Assembly (NCBI GenBank): GCA_964620245.1
Contig: CAZUJC010000002.1
Coordinates: 68-64,067, forward strand
Length of the DNA: 64,000 nt
Direction of reading: 5' to 3'
Source: an uncultured Pseudomonadota bacterium
Lineage (GTDB): Bacteria > Babelota > Babeliae > Babelales > JACPOV01
Shown here: piece by piece, positions 4,652 to 40,789 of the stretch
Numbering within the stretch: the first letter of the stretch is position 1
Layout: each line of letters starts with the position of its first letter
Notes under the pieces: generated by a model
The model's database searches: none
What the model saw: only the letters and a program-made list of their open reading frames with translations
What the model was told of the DNA's origin: nothing
Position numbers and translations under genes: made by a program

Positions 4652-5239
4652 ATGAATATGGTTGATGGCTTAGGACTTATTGTGCCGGCATTTTTAATGA
4701 ATTTTTTAATGGGAGATGCTGAAGAATCGCGTGTAAAAAAACCACGTGAGAGTGCTGAAATCGTTATTTCCTCAGAAAAACAGAAAGAGGGCTCTCAGTT
4801 TTGCGTTGCAAAAGGAGGAGTAGCTGATAAAACCGAAGATTTTTTTGATGAGAGAATAGGATTAGTCAAAACGGGTGTTAAACATCGTATTCTGTTAAAT
4901 AATGAAAAAAAATGTGGTTTTGCGCGCTACAAAACCATTCAGTCTGCGCGGCACCTAGGTAGTTATGCCTTTGTTGATCGCTTTTCTGTTGCATTTTGGC
5001 ATTTAAATAAACCGGAAGATATCGATGCTGCTTATGAAATACTCTATCAAGCGATTCGTAACGATTTAAAATTTCCACGCTCGGTTGAGCTGATTATTCC
5101 CGAAACAGATTTGTTAACTAAGGATTGGTGCAGCCGAAGAGGTTTTAAGAAACTTCAAAAATATGATAATAAACCGTATAAAAGTTATCTTATGTCATTC
5201 AGAAAGCCTAATCTATCTGATCAAACAGAAAGTGATTGA
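4652..5239 (+). CDS. Hypothetical protein; divergent GNAT-like paralogue of the upstream gene without a recognisable acetyl-CoA loop
   Basis: 195 aa with an AGGGGGA SD upstream. It shares blocks with the neighbour (NEKKCGFARY vs NEKIIGFVHY; WCSRRGFKK vs FFERNGFKK), but the Q/RxxGxG/A position reads FWHLNKPEDIDAAYEIL. Confidence 0.55.
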   Translation: MNMVDGLGLIVPAFLMNFLMGDAEESRVKKPRESAEIVISSEKQKEGSQFCVAKGGVADKTEDFFDERIGLVKTGVKHRILLNNEKKCGFARYKTIQSARHLGSYAFVDRFSVAFWHLNKPEDIDAAYEILYQAIRNDLKFPRSVELIIPETDLLTKDWCSRRGFKKLQKYDNKPYKSYLMSFRKPNLSDQTESD

Positions 5240-6684
5240 GCTTGTTGGATGTACTGCTTAAGTTTTTTTGCATCTAATTTTTTGAGTTGTTGATAGGCGA
5301 TTGCCATTCTGGGATTGTGTGCGAGCTTTTTTTTATTGCGGTACAAAAAAAACCAGTAATGAGCATTCCATTGATCACACCACGCCCCTTTGTGGAATGT
5401 TGTGCTCATGGTACGAATGTAGTTTGAGGACGAAATATATGGTTTTGTCATCATCAGGCCGCCGTCAGCAAATTGGCTCATGCCAAACACATTTGGAATC
5501 ATTACCCAGTCATAAGCATCAATAAAAAGTTCCATAAACCATTTATAGACATCTTGCGGATTGGTTTGGTGTAAAAGCATATAGTTGCCAAGAATCATGA
5601 GCCGTTCAATATGGTGAGCGTAAGCATAGGTGAGTACTTTCTGTATGGTGGTGTCAATTGGTGCGATGCCAGTGGTTGCGTTCCACCATGATGAAGGTAG
5701 TTTGTGGGTGTGTTTGAAAAAATTGCTTTTTTTCTGTTTTTCACCATGCATGATATAGATACCGCGTACATATTCTCGCCAACCAAGAATTTGTCGAACA
5801 AACCCTTCGATGGAATTAAGCGCAATCGAATGTGCGCGGCCATACGCAACTGCTTTTTCAACAACAAATTGTGGGGTGAGCAATCCACAATTGAGCAACG
5901 GTGAAAGCACTGAATGAAATAAAAATGGCTGTTCCTGGTTTATGGCATCTTGGTAAACACCAAAAAAGGCAAATCGTTTGTGTAAAAAATCATCAAACCA
6001 CCTATGAGCGTCATTAAAAGTGACCGGATAACAAAATTGATTAATGCTACCCGGATTTTTTGCAAAACAGTTTTGTGTATAGCTCATTGCTTCTTTAACA
6101 AACGGAGTTGTTTTTGGTTTCCATGCGGGTGGTATTTTTATGTGAGCTGGAATTTTTTTTCGATTTTCCACATCAAATGTCCATTTGCCACCAATTGGTT
6201 TATTTTTGTGCACAAGAATCGAAAAACGTTTACGTTGCTGTACATAAAAAGGATACAACCGAAACGATTTTTTCGCTTTTTTAAACGTTTCACGAACGAT
6301 TTTGTCAGAAAGCATGAATGCAGGTGTTTCATGTTTTTCTGTTTTGATTGAGAGTGATTTGCATAGTTTATTAAGCGATTTCTCAACGATCGTATCAACT
6401 GGGTCGATATACTTAATTTTTTTTATTTTATGTGCGTTAATTATTTTTTCTATTGATTCATTAAATGAGCAATAGAGTACGGTATGTTTGTTTTTTTTAA
6501 GATGCTGTTTATAAAATTGCATTGTTGCGCGATGAAGAACTAATTTCGTTTTATGAAATCCAAATCGCGTGAAAAAATGAGGTGCTTCCCACAAAATAAG
6601 CGGAAGATCTGTTTTTAGTAATTCATGATGCTCAAAGAGTTGATGCGGAAAAATGAGAATCACTTCATCATATTGTTTTTTCAT
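5221..6684 (-). CDS. Cryptochrome/photolyase-family protein of the FeS-BCP / prokaryotic (6-4) photolyase type (PhrB/CryB-like, COG3046)
   Basis: 487 aa. Blocks GGKWTFDVENRKKIP, HSVLSPLLNCGLL, IEGFVRQILGWREYVRGIY, AYAHHIERLMILGNYMLL and IPNVFGMSQFADGGLMMTKPYISSSNYI match the PhrB/CryB family as I recall it. The start overlaps the stop of the upstream photolyase (ATGA). Confidence 0.75.
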   Translation of the reverse strand: MKKQYDEVILIFPHQLFEHHELLKTDLPLILWEAPHFFTRFGFHKTKLVLHRATMQFYKQHLKKNKHTVLYCSFNESIEKIINAHKIKKIKYIDPVDTIVEKSLNKLCKSLSIKTEKHETPAFMLSDKIVRETFKKAKKSFRLYPFYVQQRKRFSILVHKNKPIGGKWTFDVENRKKIPAHIKIPPAWKPKTTPFVKEAMSYTQNCFAKNPGSINQFCYPVTFNDAHRWFDDFLHKRFAFFGVYQDAINQEQPFLFHSVLSPLLNCGLLTPQFVVEKAVAYGRAHSIALNSIEGFVRQILGWREYVRGIYIMHGEKQKKSNFFKHTHKLPSSWWNATTGIAPIDTTIQKVLTYAYAHHIERLMILGNYMLLHQTNPQDVYKWFMELFIDAYDWVMIPNVFGMSQFADGGLMMTKPYISSSNYIRTMSTTFHKGAWCDQWNAHYWFFLYRNKKKLAHNPRMAIAYQQLKKLDAKKLKQYIQQAQSLSV

Positions 6685-8066
6685 GATTTTACATCTCGGT
6701 ACATAATTTTTGCACGCGTACTTTCTTTTTGATGATCAACCATTGGGCATGGATAATCAATGGTGTATTTTGTGCATTGTTTGTACCATGCATGAATTAT
6801 ATCTGATGGAAGATTTTTTAATTCAGGAATCCAACGTTTGATATACACGCAATCACGATCAAATTTTTTTTGCTGCAACCATGGATTGAAAATGCGAAAA
6901 TAGGGTTGCGCATCACATCCGGTTGAAGCACTCCATTGCCAATTACCATTATTGACTGATGGATCGTAATCAACTAGTTGTTGGGCAAAATATTTTTCAC
7001 CCCAGCGCCAATCAATATGCAAATCTTTCGTTAAAAATGATGCAACAATCATGCGCACTCGATTGTGCATGAATCCAGTGGTGTTAAGTTGCCGCATGCC
7101 TGCATCAACAATGGGAAAGCCGGTTGTTCCAGTGCACCACCGGTTAAAATCTTTTTTATCAGCATTCCATGGTAATGTATCGTATTTTTTATGAAAAGCA
7201 TGACCAAATACGAATGGTGAATGATAGGCAACATGGGTGAAAAAATCACGCCAATAGAGTTGGCGCACCAATGGATGATGTACACCGAGTGTTGTGCTCA
7301 GTGCGTGATGAACTTGACGCACCGAAACGGTGCCAAATTTTAAATGTGCAGAAAGTCCAGTGGTAGGTAGCGCAGGAAAATCACGTTCTTTTTGATAATT
7401 TATAAATTGCTTGAGCGATTTTAAAATACGCAATGCATTACTGCTGCCACCGTGCACATGAATTTTTTTGTTTGAAGTTGGGATAATCTTTTTATAGATC
7501 ACATTTGCAGTACATGCAGCATCAATTTTTTTTTGATAAAAATGAATTGATGGTAATTTTTGTGGTTTTTTTACCGGATGATAAAGCGACGCTTTCAAAA
7601 ATGGGGTGAAAATACTGTACGGTGTACCATCTTGTTTGAGAATTTCTTCTGGTTCATGCAACAATGCATCACCACATTGCTCAAACTCAACTCTATGGTG
7701 AACGCAAAGTTTTTTTAGTGCTTCATCACGTTTGATGCTGAATGGCGTATAATCACGATTGGTAAAAACTACATCAATTTTTTCAGTTTTCAACAATCGT
7801 TCAACAATCTGCAGCGTTTTTCCGGAAAAAAAATATAAGCGTCCTTTTTTTTTCTTAATTTGGTTATCAAGATCTTGGAGAGATTCGATCATGAATTGAA
7901 TTGCATTTTTGCTGCGATAGTTATTGTAAGAACCAACTTGTTGTTCATCAAAAATAAAACAGGGAATAATAGTTGTCGATTTTTGTGCAGCAGCAATTAA
8001 TGCGGTATTGTCTTGAAGCCGTAGATCACGATGAAAAATAAAAAGAGCAGTGCGAGGCGGTTTCAT
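6681..8066 (-). CDS. phr: Deoxyribodipyrimidine (CPD) photolyase / DASH-type photolyase-family flavoprotein
   Basis: FAD-binding C-terminal signature TGFPIVDAGMRQLNTTGFMHNRVRMIVASFLTKDLHIDWRWGEKYFAQQLVDYDPSVNNGNWQWSASTGCDAQPYFRIFNP. The N-terminus ALFIFHRDLRLQDN resembles E. coli Phr. I place the start at ATG 8066 (MKPPRTALFIF); the ORF-track start at 8117 would overlap the MerR gene by 47 nt. Confidence 0.9.
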   Translation of the reverse strand: MKPPRTALFIFHRDLRLQDNTALIAAAQKSTTIIPCFIFDEQQVGSYNNYRSKNAIQFMIESLQDLDNQIKKKKGRLYFFSGKTLQIVERLLKTEKIDVVFTNRDYTPFSIKRDEALKKLCVHHRVEFEQCGDALLHEPEEILKQDGTPYSIFTPFLKASLYHPVKKPQKLPSIHFYQKKIDAACTANVIYKKIIPTSNKKIHVHGGSSNALRILKSLKQFINYQKERDFPALPTTGLSAHLKFGTVSVRQVHHALSTTLGVHHPLVRQLYWRDFFTHVAYHSPFVFGHAFHKKYDTLPWNADKKDFNRWCTGTTGFPIVDAGMRQLNTTGFMHNRVRMIVASFLTKDLHIDWRWGEKYFAQQLVDYDPSVNNGNWQWSASTGCDAQPYFRIFNPWLQQKKFDRDCVYIKRWIPELKNLPSDIIHAWYKQCTKYTIDYPCPMVDHQKESTRAKIMYRDVKS

Positions 8067-8070
8067 ATTT

Positions 8071-8442
8071 TTATAACAGTTCACGCAATTTAATAAGTTG
8101 TTTTTGTAGTAACGCAATTTGTTGCGTAATAGATTCGGGAATTAGAGCATTTGGTTCTTGATGAATTACAAAACTTGTTTTTGCAGATGCAGTAATGTTG
8201 GTAAGCGGTTCTTGTTCTTCAAGTAGTTTTTTTGCACCAGCAATGGTAAAACCTTGGCTATAAAGAAGTTCTTTAATTCGTTTGAATCGTTCAATTTCAT
8301 ATTGTTCATAACAACGCTGGCCACCAATTGAACGCGAACAACTTAAACCGAACTCTCGTTCCCAAAAACGAATAACAAATCGTTTCACATTGAGTTCTTT
8401 GGCAACATGGCCAATTCGATATTGTTTTCTTTGCCTATTCAT
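8071..8442 (-). CDS. MerR-family transcriptional regulator (short, no effector/B12 domain)
   Basis: 123 aa. The N-terminal HTH YRIGHVAKELNVKRFVIRFWEREFGL......GGQRCYEQYEIERFKRIKELLYSQGFTIAGAKKLL is a canonical MerR helix-turn-helix plus wing. Confidence 0.8.
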   Translation of the reverse strand: MNRQRKQYRIGHVAKELNVKRFVIRFWEREFGLSCSRSIGGQRCYEQYEIERFKRIKELLYSQGFTIAGAKKLLEEQEPLTNITASAKTSFVIHQEPNALIPESITQQIALLQKQLIKLRELL

Positions 8443-8567: not shown

Positions 8568-10130
8568 ATGAAATTTAGAGAAATTTTTATTGCATTCACA
8601 TTGGCAGTAATTACTGCAGCAGCTTTACAATATTTTTTGGGTCGGTACACGAGTTCAGACACTGGCGAAATAGCACGCTCCGGGCAACGATTTAGTGCGC
8701 CTAAATCTACCGATATGCAAATGTACAAACCGTTAAATTTGGAAATTGATTTTGTTGATATTAAAAGTACCAAGCAGCCGGTTGTAACAACACTCAAAAC
8801 AGATCACGCCCTTTATGAGTTTTCAACCGACGGTGCCGCATTGCGCCGTTTAGAATTTACACGAAACTATGGTGGCAAAGAACAATCGTTCAGCACCGTT
8901 TTCCCTCCAGCAGCAACCGATCGTGAAAAAAGTTGTTTTCTCGTTGCACTTGATCAGCAAACACCGTATGTCTTTGATCTGATAGATCAACAAGAAACTG
9001 AACAAATGTACACATTAAGCTACAAAGCTTCCATAAACGGTGGTGCTCTGTTCAAGAATTTTAGTGTGTTTAAACATGAACATCGCATCGATTTAGAACT
9101 TGCTCTTCAAGTCGCGCCTGGTGCAGCAGCACAACAAGCACGTATTTTCATACCAGCACCACTGGTACCTGAGCTTGCTGGAGAAGATGCCGTAACAGGA
9201 CTTGCTAACGATGATCGAAATAAAATTTTGATTTTGCCTCGTGATGCCCAAACAGCTTCATCATATTGGTCACGGCCGACACTTTTTGGTGCACAAGATC
9301 GCTACTTTGCGCATGCGATGGTAAGTGATCAACAGCAATTTACGCAACGTGGTTACTTTAAAGCGGTAGATATTGAAGGATGGTTTGCAATTCTTGAAGG
9401 ACCACAAGTTACCACCGATAGTTCATGGAAATTGACTTTCTATATGGGACCAAAAGAAGATCATGCAATAAATCAAGTTGATAGTCGTTTGGAGCAAACA
9501 CTCAATTATGGTTTCTTTTCGTTCATCTCAAAACCGCTTTCAAAATTAATGTTGCGTGCGCTTGATTTGATTTATGGCGTTGTGCACAATTATGGTTGGG
9601 CAATTATTATTTTGACTATTTTACTTAAATTGCTCTTGTTACCATTTACCTGGCGTGGTGAGCAAAGCATGAAATTGCGATTAGAGTACCAAAAGAAACT
9701 TGCCTATATTGAATCAAAATACAAACATGATAAAGAAACATTAGCACATGAGCGTGCAGAGTTGGTGCGTAAATATGGTATGCCAGGAATGGCGAGCTGT
9801 TTGCCGTTGCTGTTACAATTACCAATATTCTGGGCATTGAGCATTATTCTTGCTAATTCGATTGAGTTGTATAAAGCGCCGTTCTTGTGGATCCCTGATT
9901 TGTCGGCACGTGATCCATACTATATTTTGCCAATTTTAGTGGCAATCGGTATGATTTTACATTCACCTGCAGTATCTGATGCAAAGCAACGAATTTCATC
10001 GATTGGAATGGCATTATTAATTGCAGCACTTATCTCTAGTTTTTCAAGTGGATTGGCGCTCTTTACGGTGGTGAGTACATTCTTGGGTGTTGCGCAAGCA
10101 CAACTGATGAAAGTTATGAAGCATGATTGA
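8568..10130 (+). CDS. yidC: Membrane protein insertase YidC (long form with periplasmic P1 domain)
   Basis: 520 aa: N-terminal TM, large soluble domain, then the Oxa1/YidC core ..GWAIIILTILLKLLLLPFTWRGEQSMKLRLEYQKKLAYIESKYK.D.E....E...L.RKYGM.P..SCLPLLLQLPIFWAL. Confidence 0.9.
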   Translation: MKFREIFIAFTLAVITAAALQYFLGRYTSSDTGEIARSGQRFSAPKSTDMQMYKPLNLEIDFVDIKSTKQPVVTTLKTDHALYEFSTDGAALRRLEFTRNYGGKEQSFSTVFPPAATDREKSCFLVALDQQTPYVFDLIDQQETEQMYTLSYKASINGGALFKNFSVFKHEHRIDLELALQVAPGAAAQQARIFIPAPLVPELAGEDAVTGLANDDRNKILILPRDAQTASSYWSRPTLFGAQDRYFAHAMVSDQQQFTQRGYFKAVDIEGWFAILEGPQVTTDSSWKLTFYMGPKEDHAINQVDSRLEQTLNYGFFSFISKPLSKLMLRALDLIYGVVHNYGWAIIILTILLKLLLLPFTWRGEQSMKLRLEYQKKLAYIESKYKHDKETLAHERAELVRKYGMPGMASCLPLLLQLPIFWALSIILANSIELYKAPFLWIPDLSARDPYYILPILVAIGMILHSPAVSDAKQRISSIGMALLIAALISSFSSGLALFTVVSTFLGVAQAQLMKVMKHD

Positions 10131-10722
10131 TCAAGTGCCCGCACTTGCGCAGTTAGTTAAACAATTGCAGCAGATTCCGTATTTGGCATCGAAAAATGTA
10201 TACCGCGTTGCGCACTATTTTTTAATGCTTGATCAAGCACGTGTACAACAACTGTGTAAAATTATCATCGATGCAAAAATGCAGGTAGTTGCGTGTCAAA
10301 CGTGTTTTGTTTGGAAAGAAAAGGATCGAACCTGTCCGTTTTGTGATTCAAAGCGACGAGATGTATCGGTTATTTGCGTAGTAGAAACGTGGCAAGAGTT
10401 AATGGCAATTGAAAAAACTGGAGGCTATCAAGGATTGTACCACATTCTTGGCGGCGCAATTTGCCCGCTTAATGGTATAGGTCCTGAAAATTTGACAATT
10501 GATCCATTAATAAAAAGAGTGAACGAATCGGTGCGAGAAATAATTTTAGCGACCAATCAAACACCCGAAGGTGAAGCAACAGCTTCATATATTGCTTCGA
10601 AGTTGAAAGATTGCTTGCTTAAAATTTCATGTTTGGCTCGTGGTGTTCCAGTCGGTTCTACGCTGGAGTATATGGATCGCGTAACTGTTTTTAAAGCGTT
10701 GTCTGAGCGACGTCCGTTTTAA
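10123..10722 (+). CDS. recR: Recombination protein RecR
   Basis: 199 aa with a C4 zinc finger CQTCFVWKEKDRTCPFC followed by a Toprim region (VICVVETWQELMAIEKTGGYQGLYHILGG..SPL.G). The start overlaps the end of yidC by 8 nt. Confidence 0.9.
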   Translation: MIDQVPALAQLVKQLQQIPYLASKNVYRVAHYFLMLDQARVQQLCKIIIDAKMQVVACQTCFVWKEKDRTCPFCDSKRRDVSVICVVETWQELMAIEKTGGYQGLYHILGGAICPLNGIGPENLTIDPLIKRVNESVREIILATNQTPEGEATASYIASKLKDCLLKISCLARGVPVGSTLEYMDRVTVFKALSERRPF

Positions 10723-10724
10723 AT

Positions 10725-10922
10725 TTACTCTGGGTAATCGGCACATTCTCGTACTGAACCGTCTTGTCCAGAAAGTAAACACCCATTACATTGAATACAA
10801 CATTCACGATTTACAAATCGTCCATCTTTACAACATTCTTCGCAATTGACTGCTTGCAAAGAAGGAACATTAACTATAAAAATTGTCGACAAAAACAGTA
10901 CTACTGCTGTTAATTTCTTCAT
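10725..10922 (-). CDS. Secreted cysteine-rich micro-protein (hypothetical)
   Basis: 65 aa with signal peptide MKKLTAVVLFLSTIFIVNVPSLQA. The remaining ~41 aa contain 9 Cys (VNCEECCKDGRFVNRECCIQCNGCLLSGQDGSVRECADYPE). No family recognised. Confidence 0.55.
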   Translation of the reverse strand: MKKLTAVVLFLSTIFIVNVPSLQAVNCEECCKDGRFVNRECCIQCNGCLLSGQDGSVRECADYPE

Positions 10923-10982
10923 GTACAGCTCCTTTTGGTTACTATCTAGTGTATAAAATTGAGCTTTGAAAAAGCAATAAAT

Positions 10983-12176
10983 TTAGGGTTCTATTTTGGG
11001 CTTTTTTGCGATCTGGTCGATATTTGGATAGGGGAACTCTTCATTATTTCCGGCCAAAATAAGAGATGGTTGGTAGTCTCGTACGTTGAGTCGCTCATGT
11101 TCAATCAGCGCTTGTTCAATGCTCGGTTGATGTTTTTCATTCGGTTCATGAAGAAGAATAGGGTAAATTGTTTCTAAAAAATCGTTAAATTTCCCGCCAA
11201 CTTGTTCCTCGGGAGTAGATTGAATGAGTTCAAGTTTGCGTTTGCGGCTGCTGATTGAAGGAATATATTCTTTGATTTTTGGTTCATATGAAAAGGATCC
11301 AACATTGGTTCGCATAGTTGTAGCTAAAGTGCATGGTGTGAATTGGTTGAGCTCAATTGCTCTTGTGAGTCGGTGCATAGGTGTACAACAAGAATCAATG
11401 GCGATGATTGCTTTTGGATGGTGTGAAAAAAAGTAGGTAAAGATTTCACGGATCTTGTTTTCAGGAATACCAGCAATTCGAGGATAGTCGCTATCAATGT
11501 CATTTGCGTGACCGGTCAAATATACAAGCAACGGTTTTTCTTGAGGACTGATAATAAAGTTGTTTAATTTATCAATCCAATTATTGGAATTTGCTTCGGG
11601 AAGTTTGTAATAAAGCGGTGCAAGCATATGCTTAAATGTTTTAGTGTTTATGATAGTGCGAGCAGTGCCATTTTTTTTTACATAAACAAGTCCGAGCATT
11701 GTGTCGTAGCATGTCCATTCATCTTGTTTAAACGAGAGAACAGTAGTAAGTTTTTTTCTCATGTGAGAGCTATTTTCATTTTCGATTGATACATTTATTT
11801 GATTTGTTTTTTCATTAATCGAAAAAGCTCCAGTTTCATCTATTTTAATTTGTGATGCAGGTTGGGTGATTGAGTAATTATGGTAAAAAAATCGTTTAGC
11901 CTTTAAATTTCTTTTGCTAAATCTTTTCCAGAGACTGTAAGGAACAAAGAGATGATTACTTTTTTTACTCAGTAATGTGGTCAGAAAATCATGGTAAATA
12001 GCAGATTTCTTTTCGAGTGTTTCAATATCATAAATTTCAGTAGCAGTTTGTGTTGTGCTGATAAAAAAACCGATCGCATGATTATATTTGTTTTCCATTC
12101 CATGAAGATGTGCAGAAAATAAGGTCAGTAAGTTGAGCAGGGAGAGTGATGCAAAACTGAAGTAGGTTTTTTTCAT
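10983..12176 (-). CDS. Secreted hypothetical protein with a possible clan-CD (legumain/GPI8-like) His/Cys dyad
   Basis: I place the start at ATG 12176, which gives signal peptide MKKTYFSFASLSLLNLLTLFSAHLHG. The C-terminal half has LLVYLTGHAND followed 38 aa later by AIIAIDSCCTPM (hydrophobic strand-His ... hydrophobic strand-Cys). The functional assignment is tentative. Confidence 0.6.
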   Translation of the reverse strand: MKKTYFSFASLSLLNLLTLFSAHLHGMENKYNHAIGFFISTTQTATEIYDIETLEKKSAIYHDFLTTLLSKKSNHLFVPYSLWKRFSKRNLKAKRFFYHNYSITQPASQIKIDETGAFSINEKTNQINVSIENENSSHMRKKLTTVLSFKQDEWTCYDTMLGLVYVKKNGTARTIINTKTFKHMLAPLYYKLPEANSNNWIDKLNNFIISPQEKPLLVYLTGHANDIDSDYPRIAGIPENKIREIFTYFFSHHPKAIIAIDSCCTPMHRLTRAIELNQFTPCTLATTMRTNVGSFSYEPKIKEYIPSISSRKRKLELIQSTPEEQVGGKFNDFLETIYPILLHEPNEKHQPSIEQALIEHERLNVRDYQPSLILAGNNEEFPYPNIDQIAKKPKIEP

Positions 12177-12232
12177 GTAATTCAGTACACTAAAATTAAG
12201 GTGGTTAATTAACACTATTCACAAGGAATTCT

Positions 12233-13564
12233 ATGCCGATTATTGAAAAACATGATACGGTTTTTTTTAAAAATCGTCGAGAACAGCTTATACAATTAGT
12301 TAAAGAGCAGTATGCCGGCGCACAAAAAGGCATAATTTTATTGTTTGGGGCGTTTGAGACACATTCTGTATTCAAACAAGAACGTTCATTCTATTATCTG
12401 ACCGGCATAGAAGAACCTGCATCAGCATTAATGATTGATTTAGAAAAAAATTGTACGACCCTATTTGTTCCTAACTATGCGCAAGAACGTGCGAAATGGG
12501 CATCGTCGGCTGTTTTTGCGGATCAAAAAGAAAAATTTGGATTTGACGAAATTGAGTATCTCGGTCAAGAGTGTAAAGGATACCAATGCCATCCATTCTT
12601 TACCAAAGATCAATATCACAATTTATTGGTAATTCTGAATGATTATGTGCAAAATAAACGACCAATTTACACCCTCAATCCTCAAACCGCTTCTGGGTAT
12701 GTTGAACAACGTTTTATTTTGCAGCGAATTGCACAGCTAATTTCAGGACTCAATGAACAGTTAATTGATATTTCACCGTTGGTCGCGCGCATGCGCCGTG
12801 CAAAATCGCGCCAAGAAATTGAATACATTTACAAAGCAATTGATGTAACCATAGATGCGCATGATGCAGTCGCACGCGCAATCGGACCCGACAAAAAAGA
12901 GTATGAAATTCAAGCGCTTCTTGAGTATATGTTTACGGTGCGCGGCTGTTCGATTGCTTTTCCAAGCATTGTGGCTTCAGGAAAAAATGGGACTGTTTTA
13001 CATTACAATAAAAACAATGCAACAATGAAGCCTGGAGAGCTAGTTGTTGTTGATATTGGTGCGGAATATAATTATTATTGCGCCGATTTGACGCGAACTT
13101 TTCCTGTATCGGGTACTTTTTCCAAGCGGCAACGGGAATTATATTTGATTGTTCTGGAAACGCAAGAATACATTGCTCAGCTTGCGCAACCTGGTATGTG
13201 GATTGCCAACAAAGATAATCCTGAAAAATCGTTGATTCATTGTGCCCAGAAGTTTTTACAAAAACATGGGTATGACAACTATTTTGTTCATGGCATTGGT
13301 CATTTTCTTGGCCTTGATGTGCATGATGTTGGTGATTATACACAACCGTTGCAACCAAATGATGTGATTACCATAGAACCAGGAATTTATATTCCGGAAG
13401 AAAATATTGGTATTCGTATAGAAGATAATTATTGGATAGTTGAGGGTGAAGCTATTTGTTTGAGCGAAGATTTGCCCAAATCACCCGATGATGTTGAATT
13501 AGCAATGGCACATGCAACTGGCAATGAATCGACGAGTGAAGAATCGGAAGAGCAAGAAAATTAA
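12233..13564 (+). CDS. Xaa-Pro aminopeptidase / prolidase (peptidase M24B)
   Basis: 443 aa. Metal-ligand blocks VVDIGAEYNYYCADLTRTF, HGIGHFLGLDVHD, EPGIYIPE and IRIEDN are typical of M24B. There is an acidic C-terminal tail (ESTSEESEEQEN). Confidence 0.85.
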   Translation: MPIIEKHDTVFFKNRREQLIQLVKEQYAGAQKGIILLFGAFETHSVFKQERSFYYLTGIEEPASALMIDLEKNCTTLFVPNYAQERAKWASSAVFADQKEKFGFDEIEYLGQECKGYQCHPFFTKDQYHNLLVILNDYVQNKRPIYTLNPQTASGYVEQRFILQRIAQLISGLNEQLIDISPLVARMRRAKSRQEIEYIYKAIDVTIDAHDAVARAIGPDKKEYEIQALLEYMFTVRGCSIAFPSIVASGKNGTVLHYNKNNATMKPGELVVVDIGAEYNYYCADLTRTFPVSGTFSKRQRELYLIVLETQEYIAQLAQPGMWIANKDNPEKSLIHCAQKFLQKHGYDNYFVHGIGHFLGLDVHDVGDYTQPLQPNDVITIEPGIYIPEENIGIRIEDNYWIVEGEAICLSEDLPKSPDDVELAMAHATGNESTSEESEEQEN

Positions 13565-37979: not shown

Positions 37980-40700
37980 CTACCCTTGTTGTTGAATGTG
38001 AATGGTGCTTCCTTGTGGCCCTTTTTCTATGTGAAAATGCACAGGAAACTGTTCTTTCATCGCGGGAAGATGCGAAACAATAATTATTTTTTCAAAATGA
38101 TCTTGAATTTTTAACAACGCATCACACATATGCGTAATTCCTTCATCATCTTGCGAACCAAATCCTTCATCGATGATCAGTGTTTGCAAAGAAGTGCCTG
38201 CGCGCCGTGCTAACAGTTTTGAAATAGCGATGCGGAGTGCAAAATCGATTCTAAATGCCTCTCCCCCAGAAAAAAGCTCATACGGTCGAATCCCGAGCGG
38301 ATCGGAAATTTTAATATCGAGCGTTTCTTTGGTTCCACCCTTTTTTAAATCGCGTAACGAATCGATGATAATGTGTGCCTGATTGTGCGTGAGTTGGGCA
38401 AGCAATTGATTTGCTTCATATTCAATTTCGGGCAATGCATCTTCAATGAGCAGCGCCTGAATGCCTTCTTTTCCACACGCAGTTGCAATTTGTTGATAAT
38501 CGTCAACAAAGGTAAGTAATTCTGTGCGTTTCTCTTCGTATGTGCGCATCTCATTTTTTACGTGTACGAATTTACTTAATTCGTTGTTCAGTTGTCCTTT
38601 TTGCTGCAAAAGTAGTTCTTTTGTTGCGGTCAAATTTTTGTGTTGTTCGCGCAATGTTTTTTCATGCGCCAATTGTTGCACATAGTTTTGTTTTTCTGCG
38701 CGCAGCAATGCATTGTCCTTACTCAATTGGTGAATTTGTTTTTTGATGATTTTAAGTTGTTTGCACAACGCGCTGATAAATTCTGTTCGTTCGTGCTGCA
38801 AAGCATATTGTCCAACTAAATGTTGATAATGTGCAAACTGTGCGTGCGCTTCTTTAAGTTTGTTGGCAGTTTGTTCATGTGCTTTTTGATCATAATTAAG
38901 GGTGTGTAATTGTAATTCAACAGCACGAATCGATGTGCACACTTCTTTATGTGCGGCATCATTTTCAAGCAGAGCGGCAAATGTATTCTCTAAATGAAGC
39001 AGTTCCTGCTGATGTTGCTTAATAACACTTTCAAGTTCACTCAGTTCTTGTGTATTTTTTTTGGCTGCAAGCATGAACTCGCCAAGGGGTACGGTGCAGT
39101 GTGCCAGCTGCTCGCGTGAACTGAGTAACGAAGTTTCAAAATGCTTTTTTTCTTGGATGTTTTGCTGCAGCGCAGACACTTCTTTGTGTTGATCGATTAA
39201 TATTTTTTTAAGTTTGGTAAGTACGGCGCTCAACCGGTGTGCACGTTTCGTTAAAAATTGATCGTGACCTGCTAATTTATTTCGCAGAAAGCGTTTGCGC
39301 GCTGCCGACAGATTTTGCTCGCACAGTGGACAACTTGGATTGGTGGTATCGCTTGTCATTTCTTTTTTTTGTTCGATCTCTTTTAATTCACCTTTGATGC
39401 GGTCAAGTTGTGCTGCCCACTGATAATAATGTTCTTTTCGTTTTTCAAATTGCTGCGCTGTCGTTTTTTGATTCTCTATTTTTTTTGTGCATACAGTGAG
39501 ATTGCTTTCGTGCTGCGCAACTGCTTGCTGCAATTCATTTATTTTTTGTTCAAGATGTTGTTGCTGCTGTTGTGCAAGCATGCACGCTGTTTTTTTCTCT
39601 TGAAACGTGATCATGAGTTGATCAAGAGCACGTTGTTTTACTGCGCGTTGTTCATTAAAGTTTTTTTGAATGAGTTGTGCTATCTGCTGTTGTTGTTCTT
39701 TGAGTGACACGATTGTTTTATTGAGCGCAATGTGTTGCTGGACACTCTGTTGGAACTGCTCTGATTGCTGCGTGAGTTGTGCAATTTGTGTTTGCAGTGA
39801 CGAAATATCGGCCAGTTTTTTTTGTTCACGATTTATTGAGCGCCATTGAGCAAAAAGAGTAGTTAATTTGTTTTGATACTCAATCTGTTCGTTGCTGTAT
39901 TGTTTGAGTTCATAAGAAAGCCGGTGTTCTTGTTGCTCAACTGCTTGGAGTTGATCTTGTAACGCCCGAATTTGATTAAATTCATGTTCAAGTGCAGTAA
40001 ATTCATTCTCCAGAACCGTTAACTGCTCACTCACCGTTTGCAGTTGTTGGGTAACCAGCGGTTCTTGTTGCAGTTGTGCAGTATGGTGCGTTTGCAGTTG
40101 ATCAATGCAGGCAAGATCGGTTGCTGCTTGTTTAATTTTGCCCAGTGCTGCCGTGCGCAACTGCTCGTACTGATTCAAGCGCAAAATGGAAGCCAAAATA
40201 TCTTTTCGTTCCTTTGGTGTTTTTTTTGAAAATTCGTTTGATTGCCCTTGGCGCAAAAATGCTGAATTAACAAACGAATCAAAATCAAGCCCTATGAGCT
40301 GTTCAATTTTTTCTTGTGTTGCACGAATTGTTTTATCGGTAAATGGATGAACTTTTTTTGAATCGCGATCAATGAGTACAAAATCGAGTGCCGCGTACGG
40401 TTTGCCACTATTTTCTGCATATTCGCGTCGAATGCGATAGAGTTGGCCGTTAAATTGAAACTCAAAAACCACGAGCATCTGTGTTTGTCCAAGCCGTAAT
40501 AAATGTGCATCAGGTTTTGCAGCGCCCGAAATTTTGCGCGCTTGCCCCCACACAGCCCAGGTGATCGCATCCAACAGTGCCGATTTACCGTGACCATTTT
40601 TGCCGTTTAAGCAAATGAGGTGGTACGGTGCAAAATCGATTGTTTGCAGCGTCGGTCCGTAACTTAAAAAATTTTTGAGTTGTAGTTTTAGTGGAATCAT
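37980..40700 (-). CDS. sbcC: SbcC/Rad50-family SMC-like ATPase (DNA double-strand-break repair nuclease subunit)
   Basis: Walker A GKNGHGKSALLDAITWAVWG, a very long Q/E/L-rich coiled coil, a central zinc hook NPSCPLCEQ, the signature LFSGGEAFRIDFALRIA, Walker B LQTLIIDEGFGSQD and D-loop/His IIIVSH. ATG 40700 is preferred over TTG 40718. Confidence 0.85.
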   Translation of the reverse strand: MIPLKLQLKNFLSYGPTLQTIDFAPYHLICLNGKNGHGKSALLDAITWAVWGQARKISGAAKPDAHLLRLGQTQMLVVFEFQFNGQLYRIRREYAENSGKPYAALDFVLIDRDSKKVHPFTDKTIRATQEKIEQLIGLDFDSFVNSAFLRQGQSNEFSKKTPKERKDILASILRLNQYEQLRTAALGKIKQAATDLACIDQLQTHHTAQLQQEPLVTQQLQTVSEQLTVLENEFTALEHEFNQIRALQDQLQAVEQQEHRLSYELKQYSNEQIEYQNKLTTLFAQWRSINREQKKLADISSLQTQIAQLTQQSEQFQQSVQQHIALNKTIVSLKEQQQQIAQLIQKNFNEQRAVKQRALDQLMITFQEKKTACMLAQQQQQHLEQKINELQQAVAQHESNLTVCTKKIENQKTTAQQFEKRKEHYYQWAAQLDRIKGELKEIEQKKEMTSDTTNPSCPLCEQNLSAARKRFLRNKLAGHDQFLTKRAHRLSAVLTKLKKILIDQHKEVSALQQNIQEKKHFETSLLSSREQLAHCTVPLGEFMLAAKKNTQELSELESVIKQHQQELLHLENTFAALLENDAAHKEVCTSIRAVELQLHTLNYDQKAHEQTANKLKEAHAQFAHYQHLVGQYALQHERTEFISALCKQLKIIKKQIHQLSKDNALLRAEKQNYVQQLAHEKTLREQHKNLTATKELLLQQKGQLNNELSKFVHVKNEMRTYEEKRTELLTFVDDYQQIATACGKEGIQALLIEDALPEIEYEANQLLAQLTHNQAHIIIDSLRDLKKGGTKETLDIKISDPLGIRPYELFSGGEAFRIDFALRIAISKLLARRAGTSLQTLIIDEGFGSQDDEGITHMCDALLKIQDHFEKIIIVSHLPAMKEQFPVHFHIEKGPQGSTIHIQQQG

Positions 40701-40789
40701 GAGCGTTAGTTTACTCAAAGGAGTTCAGGGTGGCAATCATCGCAAAGAATAGTACTAACGGCAAAGTGCGGTAAAAATCATGTGTCCAG

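Follow-up and report, generated by a model that had tools for sequence, protein, structure and literature searches.

Peptidases of family C13, which include legumain and GPI8/PIGK, belong to clan CD and cleave after Asn or Asp, or, in the case of GPI8, act at the GPI omega site. Their catalytic His and Cys each follow a hydrophobic strand, in that order and 41 residues apart in legumain or 42 in GPI8, with an acidic residue placed two positions before the Cys (IEAC in legumain, IDTC in GPI8). Two other described systems bring a cysteine protease together with a small protein: plant asparaginyl endopeptidase (AEP) ligases process and cyclise cyclotide precursors, and staphostatins, which are cytoplasmic beta-barrels, act as inhibitors of staphopains. 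The subject here is a 64,000-nucleotide stretch of bacterial DNA (from contig CAZUJC010000002.1; hereafter the window), in which a gene for a 397-residue protein is followed on the same strand by one for a 65-residue cysteine-rich precursor. The genome belongs to Candidatus Dependentiae (TM6), and the same two genes occur in other assemblies of this candidate phylum, whose members are intracellular parasites of protists and of which, to our knowledge, almost no secreted proteins have been characterised.

The reading that we favour, and consider likely, is that the larger product is an exported, C13-related clan CD peptidase or transpeptidase, probably directed at the host, and that the small gene beside it is separate and older. 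A preliminary description of the locus had proposed a clan CD protease acting together with a secreted cysteine-rich peptide. Its observations were borne out in part; of its interpretation, the clan CD assignment gained support and the pairing did not.

Probable relationship of the large protein to family C13

The larger gene and the elements within it are placed as follows.

10983..12176, minus strand: large gene, coding for 397 residues (predicted C13-like exported clan CD peptidase homologue); open reading frame (ORF) beginning with ATG (MKKTYF), stop codon at 10983-10985
12099..12176, minus strand: codons 1-26, putative Sec signal peptide (MKK, hydrophobic core, LHG and then ME), from a hydrophobicity scan and family comparison
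11577..11705, minus strand: codons 158-200 (D158, G162, W200), within a beta-rich region of about residues 106-200 that lies between the core elements
11508..11510, minus strand: codon of His223, which closes strand 217-222 and is the proposed catalytic His; invariant in 18 of 18 sequences and aligned to legumain His148
11388..11390, minus strand: codon of Cys263, which closes strand 257-261 and is the proposed nucleophile; invariant in 18 of 18 sequences and aligned to legumain Cys189

Sequence and profile searches with the protein or its family returned no Pfam, NCBIfam or PDB match. An exhaustive phmmer search over 1.84 billion cluster representatives found 15 relatives, with E-values from 4e-119 to 6e-4, which sets the family at no fewer than 15 clusters. 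Repeating the search against a 5.8-billion-protein database with the family alignment added no members, and a genome scan with a close alignment (A1) recovered only a metagenome-assembled genome (MAG) that was already known. The only names attached to members are those of a "hypothetical protein" of Candidatus Dependentiae or Babeliales, and the 52%-identical orthologue of the window protein sits on a MAG labelled Candidatus Dependentiae. Literature searches linking Dependentiae to legumain or to cysteine-rich effectors brought up no relevant work.

An alignment of 18 sequences, reaching down to 18-24% identity, leaves only five invariant columns: D158, G162, W200, H223 and C263. A further four (F77, T159, L163 and G222) are near-invariant, and the blocks around the His and the Cys have the consensus YLxGHGS and IxSCY, in that order. 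In the window protein the first block lies in LLVYLTGHAND, which begins at residue 216, and the second in AIIAIDSCCTPM, which begins at residue 256. The preliminary description had singled out these two residues as a clan CD dyad, and the dyad has stood up well; the interval between them, which it gave as 38 residues, is 40, close to the values of legumain and GPI8. Its caveat that the His is followed by Ala applies to a few members of the family: Gly occupies this position in 14 of the 18 sequences, with Ala in the window protein, P0001 and P0002, and Ser in P0011. His-Ala is a peculiarity of the window's subclade.

A C13 profile was made from human legumain, human PIGK, Arabidopsis gamma-VPE and yeast Gpi8, and was validated by its full-length matches to the legumains and the glycosylphosphatidylinositol (GPI) transamidase in the PDB, at E-values of 1e-179 to 1e-204. 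Compared with this profile by hhalign, the large-protein family aligned over 199 columns at about 14% identity, with a probability of 81.5% and P=1.1e-5. In the alignment H223 stands opposite legumain H148, C263 opposite C189 and D261 opposite E187, so that the acidic residue two before the Cys is shared as well (IDSC in the window protein). TLATT, the beta5 strand after the Cys, falls opposite VYATT, and SITQPASQIKI falls opposite GIPDEQIVVMM, the pattern I-x-x-P-x-x-Q-I-x-I of the window protein resembling legumain GIPDEQIVV. Controls gave nothing comparable: the family against the reversed C13 profile and the reversed family against C13 yielded P=0.10-0.13, and the family against profiles of recR, pepP, yidC and nhaC yielded P=0.28-0.68. 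As a benchmark, the accepted relationship between C13 and C14 scores P=7e-4 by the same method.

Structural predictions point the same way. AlphaFold2 modelled the window protein with a predicted local distance difference test score (pLDDT) of 77.9 and a predicted template-modelling score (pTM) of 0.79, and modelled P0004, a relative at 20% identity, with a pLDDT of 72.1. In both models the elements run in the order strand-His, helix, strand-Cys, helix, strand. Foldseek against the PDB placed GPI8/PIGK, AEP ligases, legumains of plants and animals, caspases and a C11 protease among the top matches for both. Clan CD peptidases make up 24 of the 25 best matches of P0004 and most of the best 25 of the window model, where they are interleaved with aminotransferase and ribokinase chains. 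A Foldseek search on such a model had been suggested at the outset, and while it does bring clan CD mostly to the top, each match is weak when taken singly (E 0.06-0.5, template-modelling score about 0.2, both models).

Within clan CD, families C14, C11 and C80 share the inferred fold and the His/Cys dyad with the window protein, and C11 iotapain and caspases are among the Foldseek matches. Weak Pfam matches of single family members, to Peptidase_C13 (E=0.021) and Peptidase_C80 (E=0.097), also speak for the clan. The resemblance does not carry over to caspases at the profile level, as alignment A2 of the family showed no similarity to a profile of four caspases (C14) in hhalign (probability 0.2%, P=0.31). 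The family also differs from C13 itself. It has a beta-rich region of its own, some 95 residues long (about residues 106-200, with D158, G162 and W200), which aligns to C13 only with gaps; neither an Asn42/Arg44/His45 motif nor an LSAM-type prodomain was detected in the window protein; and it is bacterial, its named members lying in Dependentiae only.

Several observations weigh against a C13-like assignment. The window protein has no Pfam match even at E<=1, and the gathering threshold of PF01650 is missed throughout, the match at E=0.021 being confined to one of the 18 members. The hhalign probability lies below 95%. Of the residues that form the legumain S1 pocket (Arg44, His45, Glu187, Ser215 and Asp231), only Glu187 has a confidently aligned counterpart, Asp261, which varies within the family. 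The N-terminal region, where a counterpart of Asn42, the third catalytic residue of legumain, would be sought, aligns at negligible confidence only, and the window's subclade has His-Ala in place of His-Gly.

On balance, the large protein probably belongs to clan CD and is C13-like at the level of clan and profile, without membership of PF01650. Together with its relatives it appears to form an uncharacterised family that is closest to C13 yet missed by the curated models, and that would probably count as a new C13-related family of clan CD. Such an assignment would give proteins now called hypothetical in Dependentiae a testable biochemical function, that of a clan CD peptidase with a His223/Cys263 dyad, and would widen the range of enzymes like legumain and GPI8 to a lineage of bacteria living within eukaryotic cells.

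Export and proposed role of the large protein

The mechanical ORF of the large gene reaches a GTG at 12215; its orthologues all begin at MKK. From that start, a basic n-region is followed by a hydrophobic core, as is also the case in the small protein, and in both families conservation begins only past the proposed cleavage site. This accords with the signal peptides that had been noted on both products. For the large protein, 14 of the 18 family members have a signal-like N-terminus and the other four are probably truncated gene calls; a [G/A/S]-Met-Glu junction recurs after the hydrophobic core in the homologues, and AlphaFold predicts a low-confidence helix at the N-terminus.

Four other Dependentiae assemblies keep the two genes in this order, making five genomes in the clade with that of the window. 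The orthologues of the large protein are 94, 81 and 52% identical, and a 65-residue ORF follows each of them in the same gene order. The large gene is the fastest-evolving in its neighbourhood. Between the window and the orthologous locus L001 its product is 51% identical, against 76-96% for most neighbours, 61% for a 114-residue membrane protein and 88% for the small protein, and its ratio of non-synonymous to synonymous substitution rates (dN/dS) is 0.25-0.29, against 0.02-0.05 for recR. No paralogue of the gene was found within the window. Two paralogues occur on contig L010 (2783-3925 and 4829-6064; hidden Markov model (HMM) E-values 6e-107 and 3e-53), with a HAD hydrolase gene on the opposite strand between them, and the remote homologues stand in unrelated contexts, beside ankyrin and WD40 genes.

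As a side observation, two remote members that are mutually 25% identical, P0004 and P0016, each precede a co-oriented gene for a protein of 122-138 residues (5156-5524 in L007 and 5097-5513 in L092). These downstream proteins have a signal peptide and a transmembrane segment, are 42% identical to each other and have no homologue in the window; they may be the real partners of the P0004/P0016 subfamily.

If the C13-like assignment is correct, the large protein would be exported through the Sec pathway and then lose its signal peptide. Catalysis would rely on Cys263 as nucleophile and on His223 as general base, with each residue capping a hydrophobic beta-strand in an alpha/beta sandwich of the caspase/hemoglobinase type, and the family-specific region with D158, G162 and W200 would probably shape the substrate site. 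Its most likely role would be that of a secreted hydrolase acting on host proteins, as other exported proteases of these intracellular parasites may do. A host-directed role is suggested because the gene evolves fast, has given rise to paralogues (those of L010) and occurs in shifting contexts, and because there is a precedent among the secreted peptidases of Chromulinavorax. In the cultured Dependentiae member Chromulinavorax destructans, 44% of the coding sequences carry signal peptides, and the secreted peptidases, which include a C11 (clan CD) enzyme, have been proposed to degrade host structures (PMC6561590).

Export beyond the periplasm and a host target are, nonetheless, steps that we only infer, which tells against the host-directed reading, and its main alternative is that the protein serves the bacterial envelope itself, either as a processing protease, periplasmic or tethered to the membrane, or as a transpeptidase of the GPI8 kind that acts on envelope proteins. 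What can be seen is only a Sec-type N-terminus, which is possibly an uncleaved anchor of moderate hydrophobicity (1.8); the IDSC of the window protein resembles the IDTC of GPI8; the best Foldseek probability for the window model (0.92) belongs to a GPI transamidase subunit, 8imy_K; and the P0004/P0016 subfamily retains its small membrane protein downstream. Fast evolution, paralogy with two copies on L010 and shifting context are, however, unlike a housekeeping envelope enzyme, and the gene is absent at this locus in most Dependentiae, so we hold an envelope function to be unlikely. A more radical doubt is that the His/Cys pattern is coincidental or vestigial, carried by some other fold or by a catalytically dead scaffold. 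Such a view would fit the lack of any curated-family or PDB sequence match, Foldseek E-values that all exceed 0.05 and the replacement of His-Gly by His-Ala. It does not readily account for a His and a Cys that are invariant at about 20% family identity, where nearly everything else varies, nor for an hhalign register that places exactly H223 and C263 on the C13 dyad while its controls stay clean, and we regard it as very improbable.

The small cysteine-rich peptide

The second gene and the spacer ahead of it occupy the adjoining positions.

10725..10922, minus strand: small gene, coding for a 65-residue precursor; signal peptide codons 1-24 at 10851-10922, mature part at 10728-10850
10923..10982, minus strand: intergenic spacer of 60 nucleotides (nt), with an AAGGAG Shine-Dalgarno site at 10929-10934, 6 nt ahead of the ATG of the small gene

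The two ORFs are thus on the same strand and exactly 60 nt apart, as had been reported. The precursor begins with a signal peptide (MKK, hydrophobic core, LQA) and continues as VNCEECCKDGRFVNRECCIQCNGCLLSGQDGSVRECADYPE. Once processed it would be an acidic peptide of 41 residues, the length first estimated, with cysteines at positions 3, 6, 7, 17, 18, 21, 24 and 36; they number eight, where nine had been counted.

Database searches with the peptide gave no Pfam match at E<=1, only chance RING-finger matches (E>2) in a PDB profile search, and only its own 90% cluster in a word-indexed search. Distant homologues came instead from a scan of 80 metagenomic loci retrieved through RecR. Those in L012, L013, L024 and L026 have HMM E-values of 1e-16 to 2e-7, improving to 1e-27 or better after iteration, and a weaker homologue is present in L042. 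Invariant in the alignment are six cysteines together with E28, D53, D61 and P63 (precursor numbering); the two Asp residues are D30 and D38 of the mature peptide, and all of the homologues keep a D-[F/Y]-P motif at the extreme C-terminus. The framework, C-x2-CC-x9-C(C)-x2/3-C-x2-C-x11-(C), was matched to no described family.

Variation in the cysteines follows a simple pattern. L013 and L024 have lost both C18 and C36 (mature numbering), and L012 and L026 have gained a pair of additional N-terminal cysteines, giving counts of 6, 8 or 10, the sole exception being the weak homologue of L042 with 7. Since cysteines come and go in pairs, disulfides are more plausible than a metal cluster, and the pattern argues for three disulfides in a core, with one or two more that vary. 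An Fe-S cluster, suggested by CxxCxxC, was considered and set aside, as the predicted signal is of the Sec and not the Tat type and the cysteines appear to be gained and lost in pairs. A lipoprotein was likewise rejected, as there is no lipobox (LQA-VNC). In size, Sec signal and cysteine content (6-10, with CC doublets and mostly even counts) the peptide resembles knottins, conotoxin frameworks and heat-stable enterotoxin; it differs from them in that neither Pfam nor the PDB yields a sequence match at E<=1.

A 65-residue ORF that is short and without a database family might be taken for a chance ORF. The pattern of conservation effectively refutes that view. In the mature part, the window and L001 differ by 15 synonymous and 4 non-synonymous changes; a Shine-Dalgarno site, kept in all peptide homologues, is conserved across nine lineages; and homologues down to 37% identity retain the cysteine framework. 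The ORF is present in all orthologous loci, so that its conservation, on which the first account had made its case depend, is clear, and its dN/dS is 0.07-0.12 overall and 0.01-0.06 in the mature part, which points to strong purifying selection. Both ORFs are real genes, and the smaller appears to represent an orphan family of predicted secreted, disulfide-rich peptides. What this defines is a strongly constrained peptide family with a predicted three to five disulfides.

Upstream of the peptide gene in two of the distant loci (L013, 1522-1911; L024, 1244-1460) there is an ORF-free stretch that contains a short conserved block (GTTCGTATGGTT...TAAAGCT..CCG..CAGGCG). An Rfam scan of these stretches gave no match.

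Predicted protease and peptide at the recR-pepP junction

On either side of the two genes lie members of a conserved gene order.

10123..10722, plus strand: recR, with Pfam Toprim_4 and RecR_C; synteny in 80 loci
12233..13564, plus strand: pepP-like gene for an M24 Xaa-Pro aminopeptidase, with Pfam Peptidase_M24 and AMP_N; synteny

Upstream of recR stands yidC, and beyond pepP a gene for an NhaC-type antiporter. The order yidC-recR-pepP-(...)-nhaC is a conserved Dependentiae backbone, seen in 80 recR loci (L012-L091), and in most of the loci of sufficient length no gene separates recR from pepP, the slot between them being empty. A peptide gene lies beside recR on the opposite strand in 5 of the 80 loci, three of which can be read through to pepP. 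In L042 the order is recR, peptide, pepP, and L024 is the same, with the N-terminus of pepP visible; in L026 an ankyrin-like gene of 339 residues intervenes between recR and the peptide gene, which is followed by pepP. The contigs of L012 and L013 stop short of pepP, and no protease-family ORF is visible in the remaining 200-420 nt. Indeed, no member of the protease family was found in any of the 80 recR loci, and peptide and C13-like gene occur together in the slot only in the window clade. Within a backbone that is otherwise fixed, the junction of recR and pepP is thus a slot whose contents vary. As the peptide occupies the slot elsewhere without a protease, the protease gene appears to have been added, in the window's lineage only, next to a peptide gene that was already there and is the more constrained of the two.

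It was natural to suppose that the two genes form a functional pair, in which the enzyme would mature, cleave or cyclise the peptide, for instance at its C-terminal Asp-[Phe/Tyr]-Pro, or the peptide would be a co-exported inhibitor. The genes are co-oriented, 60 nt apart and without a terminator between them; both products are predicted to be exported; all five genomes of the clade retain this order; and the peptide combines its invariant D30 and D38 with a conserved motif at the extreme C-terminus, where the taste of C13 enzymes for Asn and Asp would find a target. Adjacency within the clade is uninformative, however, because the whole region is syntenic there, and co-occurrence outside the clade, when looked for, was not found. 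L024, L026 and L042 have the peptide in the slot without a protease gene, none of the 80 recR loci has a protease-family member, and neither a peptide homologue nor another small cysteine-rich ORF lies within 4 kb of the six remote protease homologues (L007, L009, L010, L092, L093 and L094). Evolutionary rates are decoupled as well (the large proteins of the window and L001 are 51% identical, the small ones 88%). We consider a functional pair improbable: the genes are better described as neighbours in one lineage, and a conserved enzyme-substrate pair is not supported. Two points count on the other side, in that the spacer lacks a terminator, so that co-transcription of the large and small genes is possible, and a protease paralogue could possibly lie elsewhere in the peptide-bearing genomes.

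The comparison with described systems bears on the same question. With the plant AEP/cyclotide and staphopain-staphostatin systems the locus shares a cysteine protease gene beside a gene for a small protein, which is disulfide-rich here and has an invariant Asp near its C-terminus. It differs from both in that the adjacency is limited to one clade, and staphostatins are cytoplasmic, whereas the cysteine-rich peptide is predicted to be secreted. In a bolder variant, the C13-like enzymes of Dependentiae would mature or ligate peptides, this one among them, which would be cut and possibly transpeptidated or cyclised at the C-terminal Asp-[Phe/Tyr]-Pro, with a paralogue at another site in the genome acting where the genes are not adjacent. 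Were this so, bacteria would have a counterpart of the asparaginyl endopeptidase/cyclotide system of plants, but we give it only a slim chance. An attractive story of enzyme plus substrate is thus removed as unsupported, leaving the exported C13-like protein and the older peptide to be read separately.

Scans for promoters and terminators told little, their counts lying at or under the shuffle expectation; no terminator-like hairpin was found in the 60-nt spacer. The recR and peptide genes are convergent (10722-10725), with stop codons 2 nt apart and no terminator-like hairpin between them. The large gene and pepP are divergent, with 56 nt between their start codons (12177-12232), a spacing that is the same in L001; any promoter of either gene must reach into the coding region of its neighbour. 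A weak promoter-like site lies on the minus strand at 12280-12252, within pepP.

Two features elsewhere in the window may be recorded. A 59-residue ORF with 15 cysteines (39670-39849, plus strand) runs antisense within a 912-residue ORF (37980-40718, minus strand) and is probably spurious. Two photolyase/cryptochrome-type genes (6681-8117 and 5221-6684, minus strand) follow immediately downstream of a gene for a MerR-family regulator (8071-8442, minus strand), an arrangement (5221-8442) that is unexpected for an intracellular parasite and that is kept in L001, L002 and L005.

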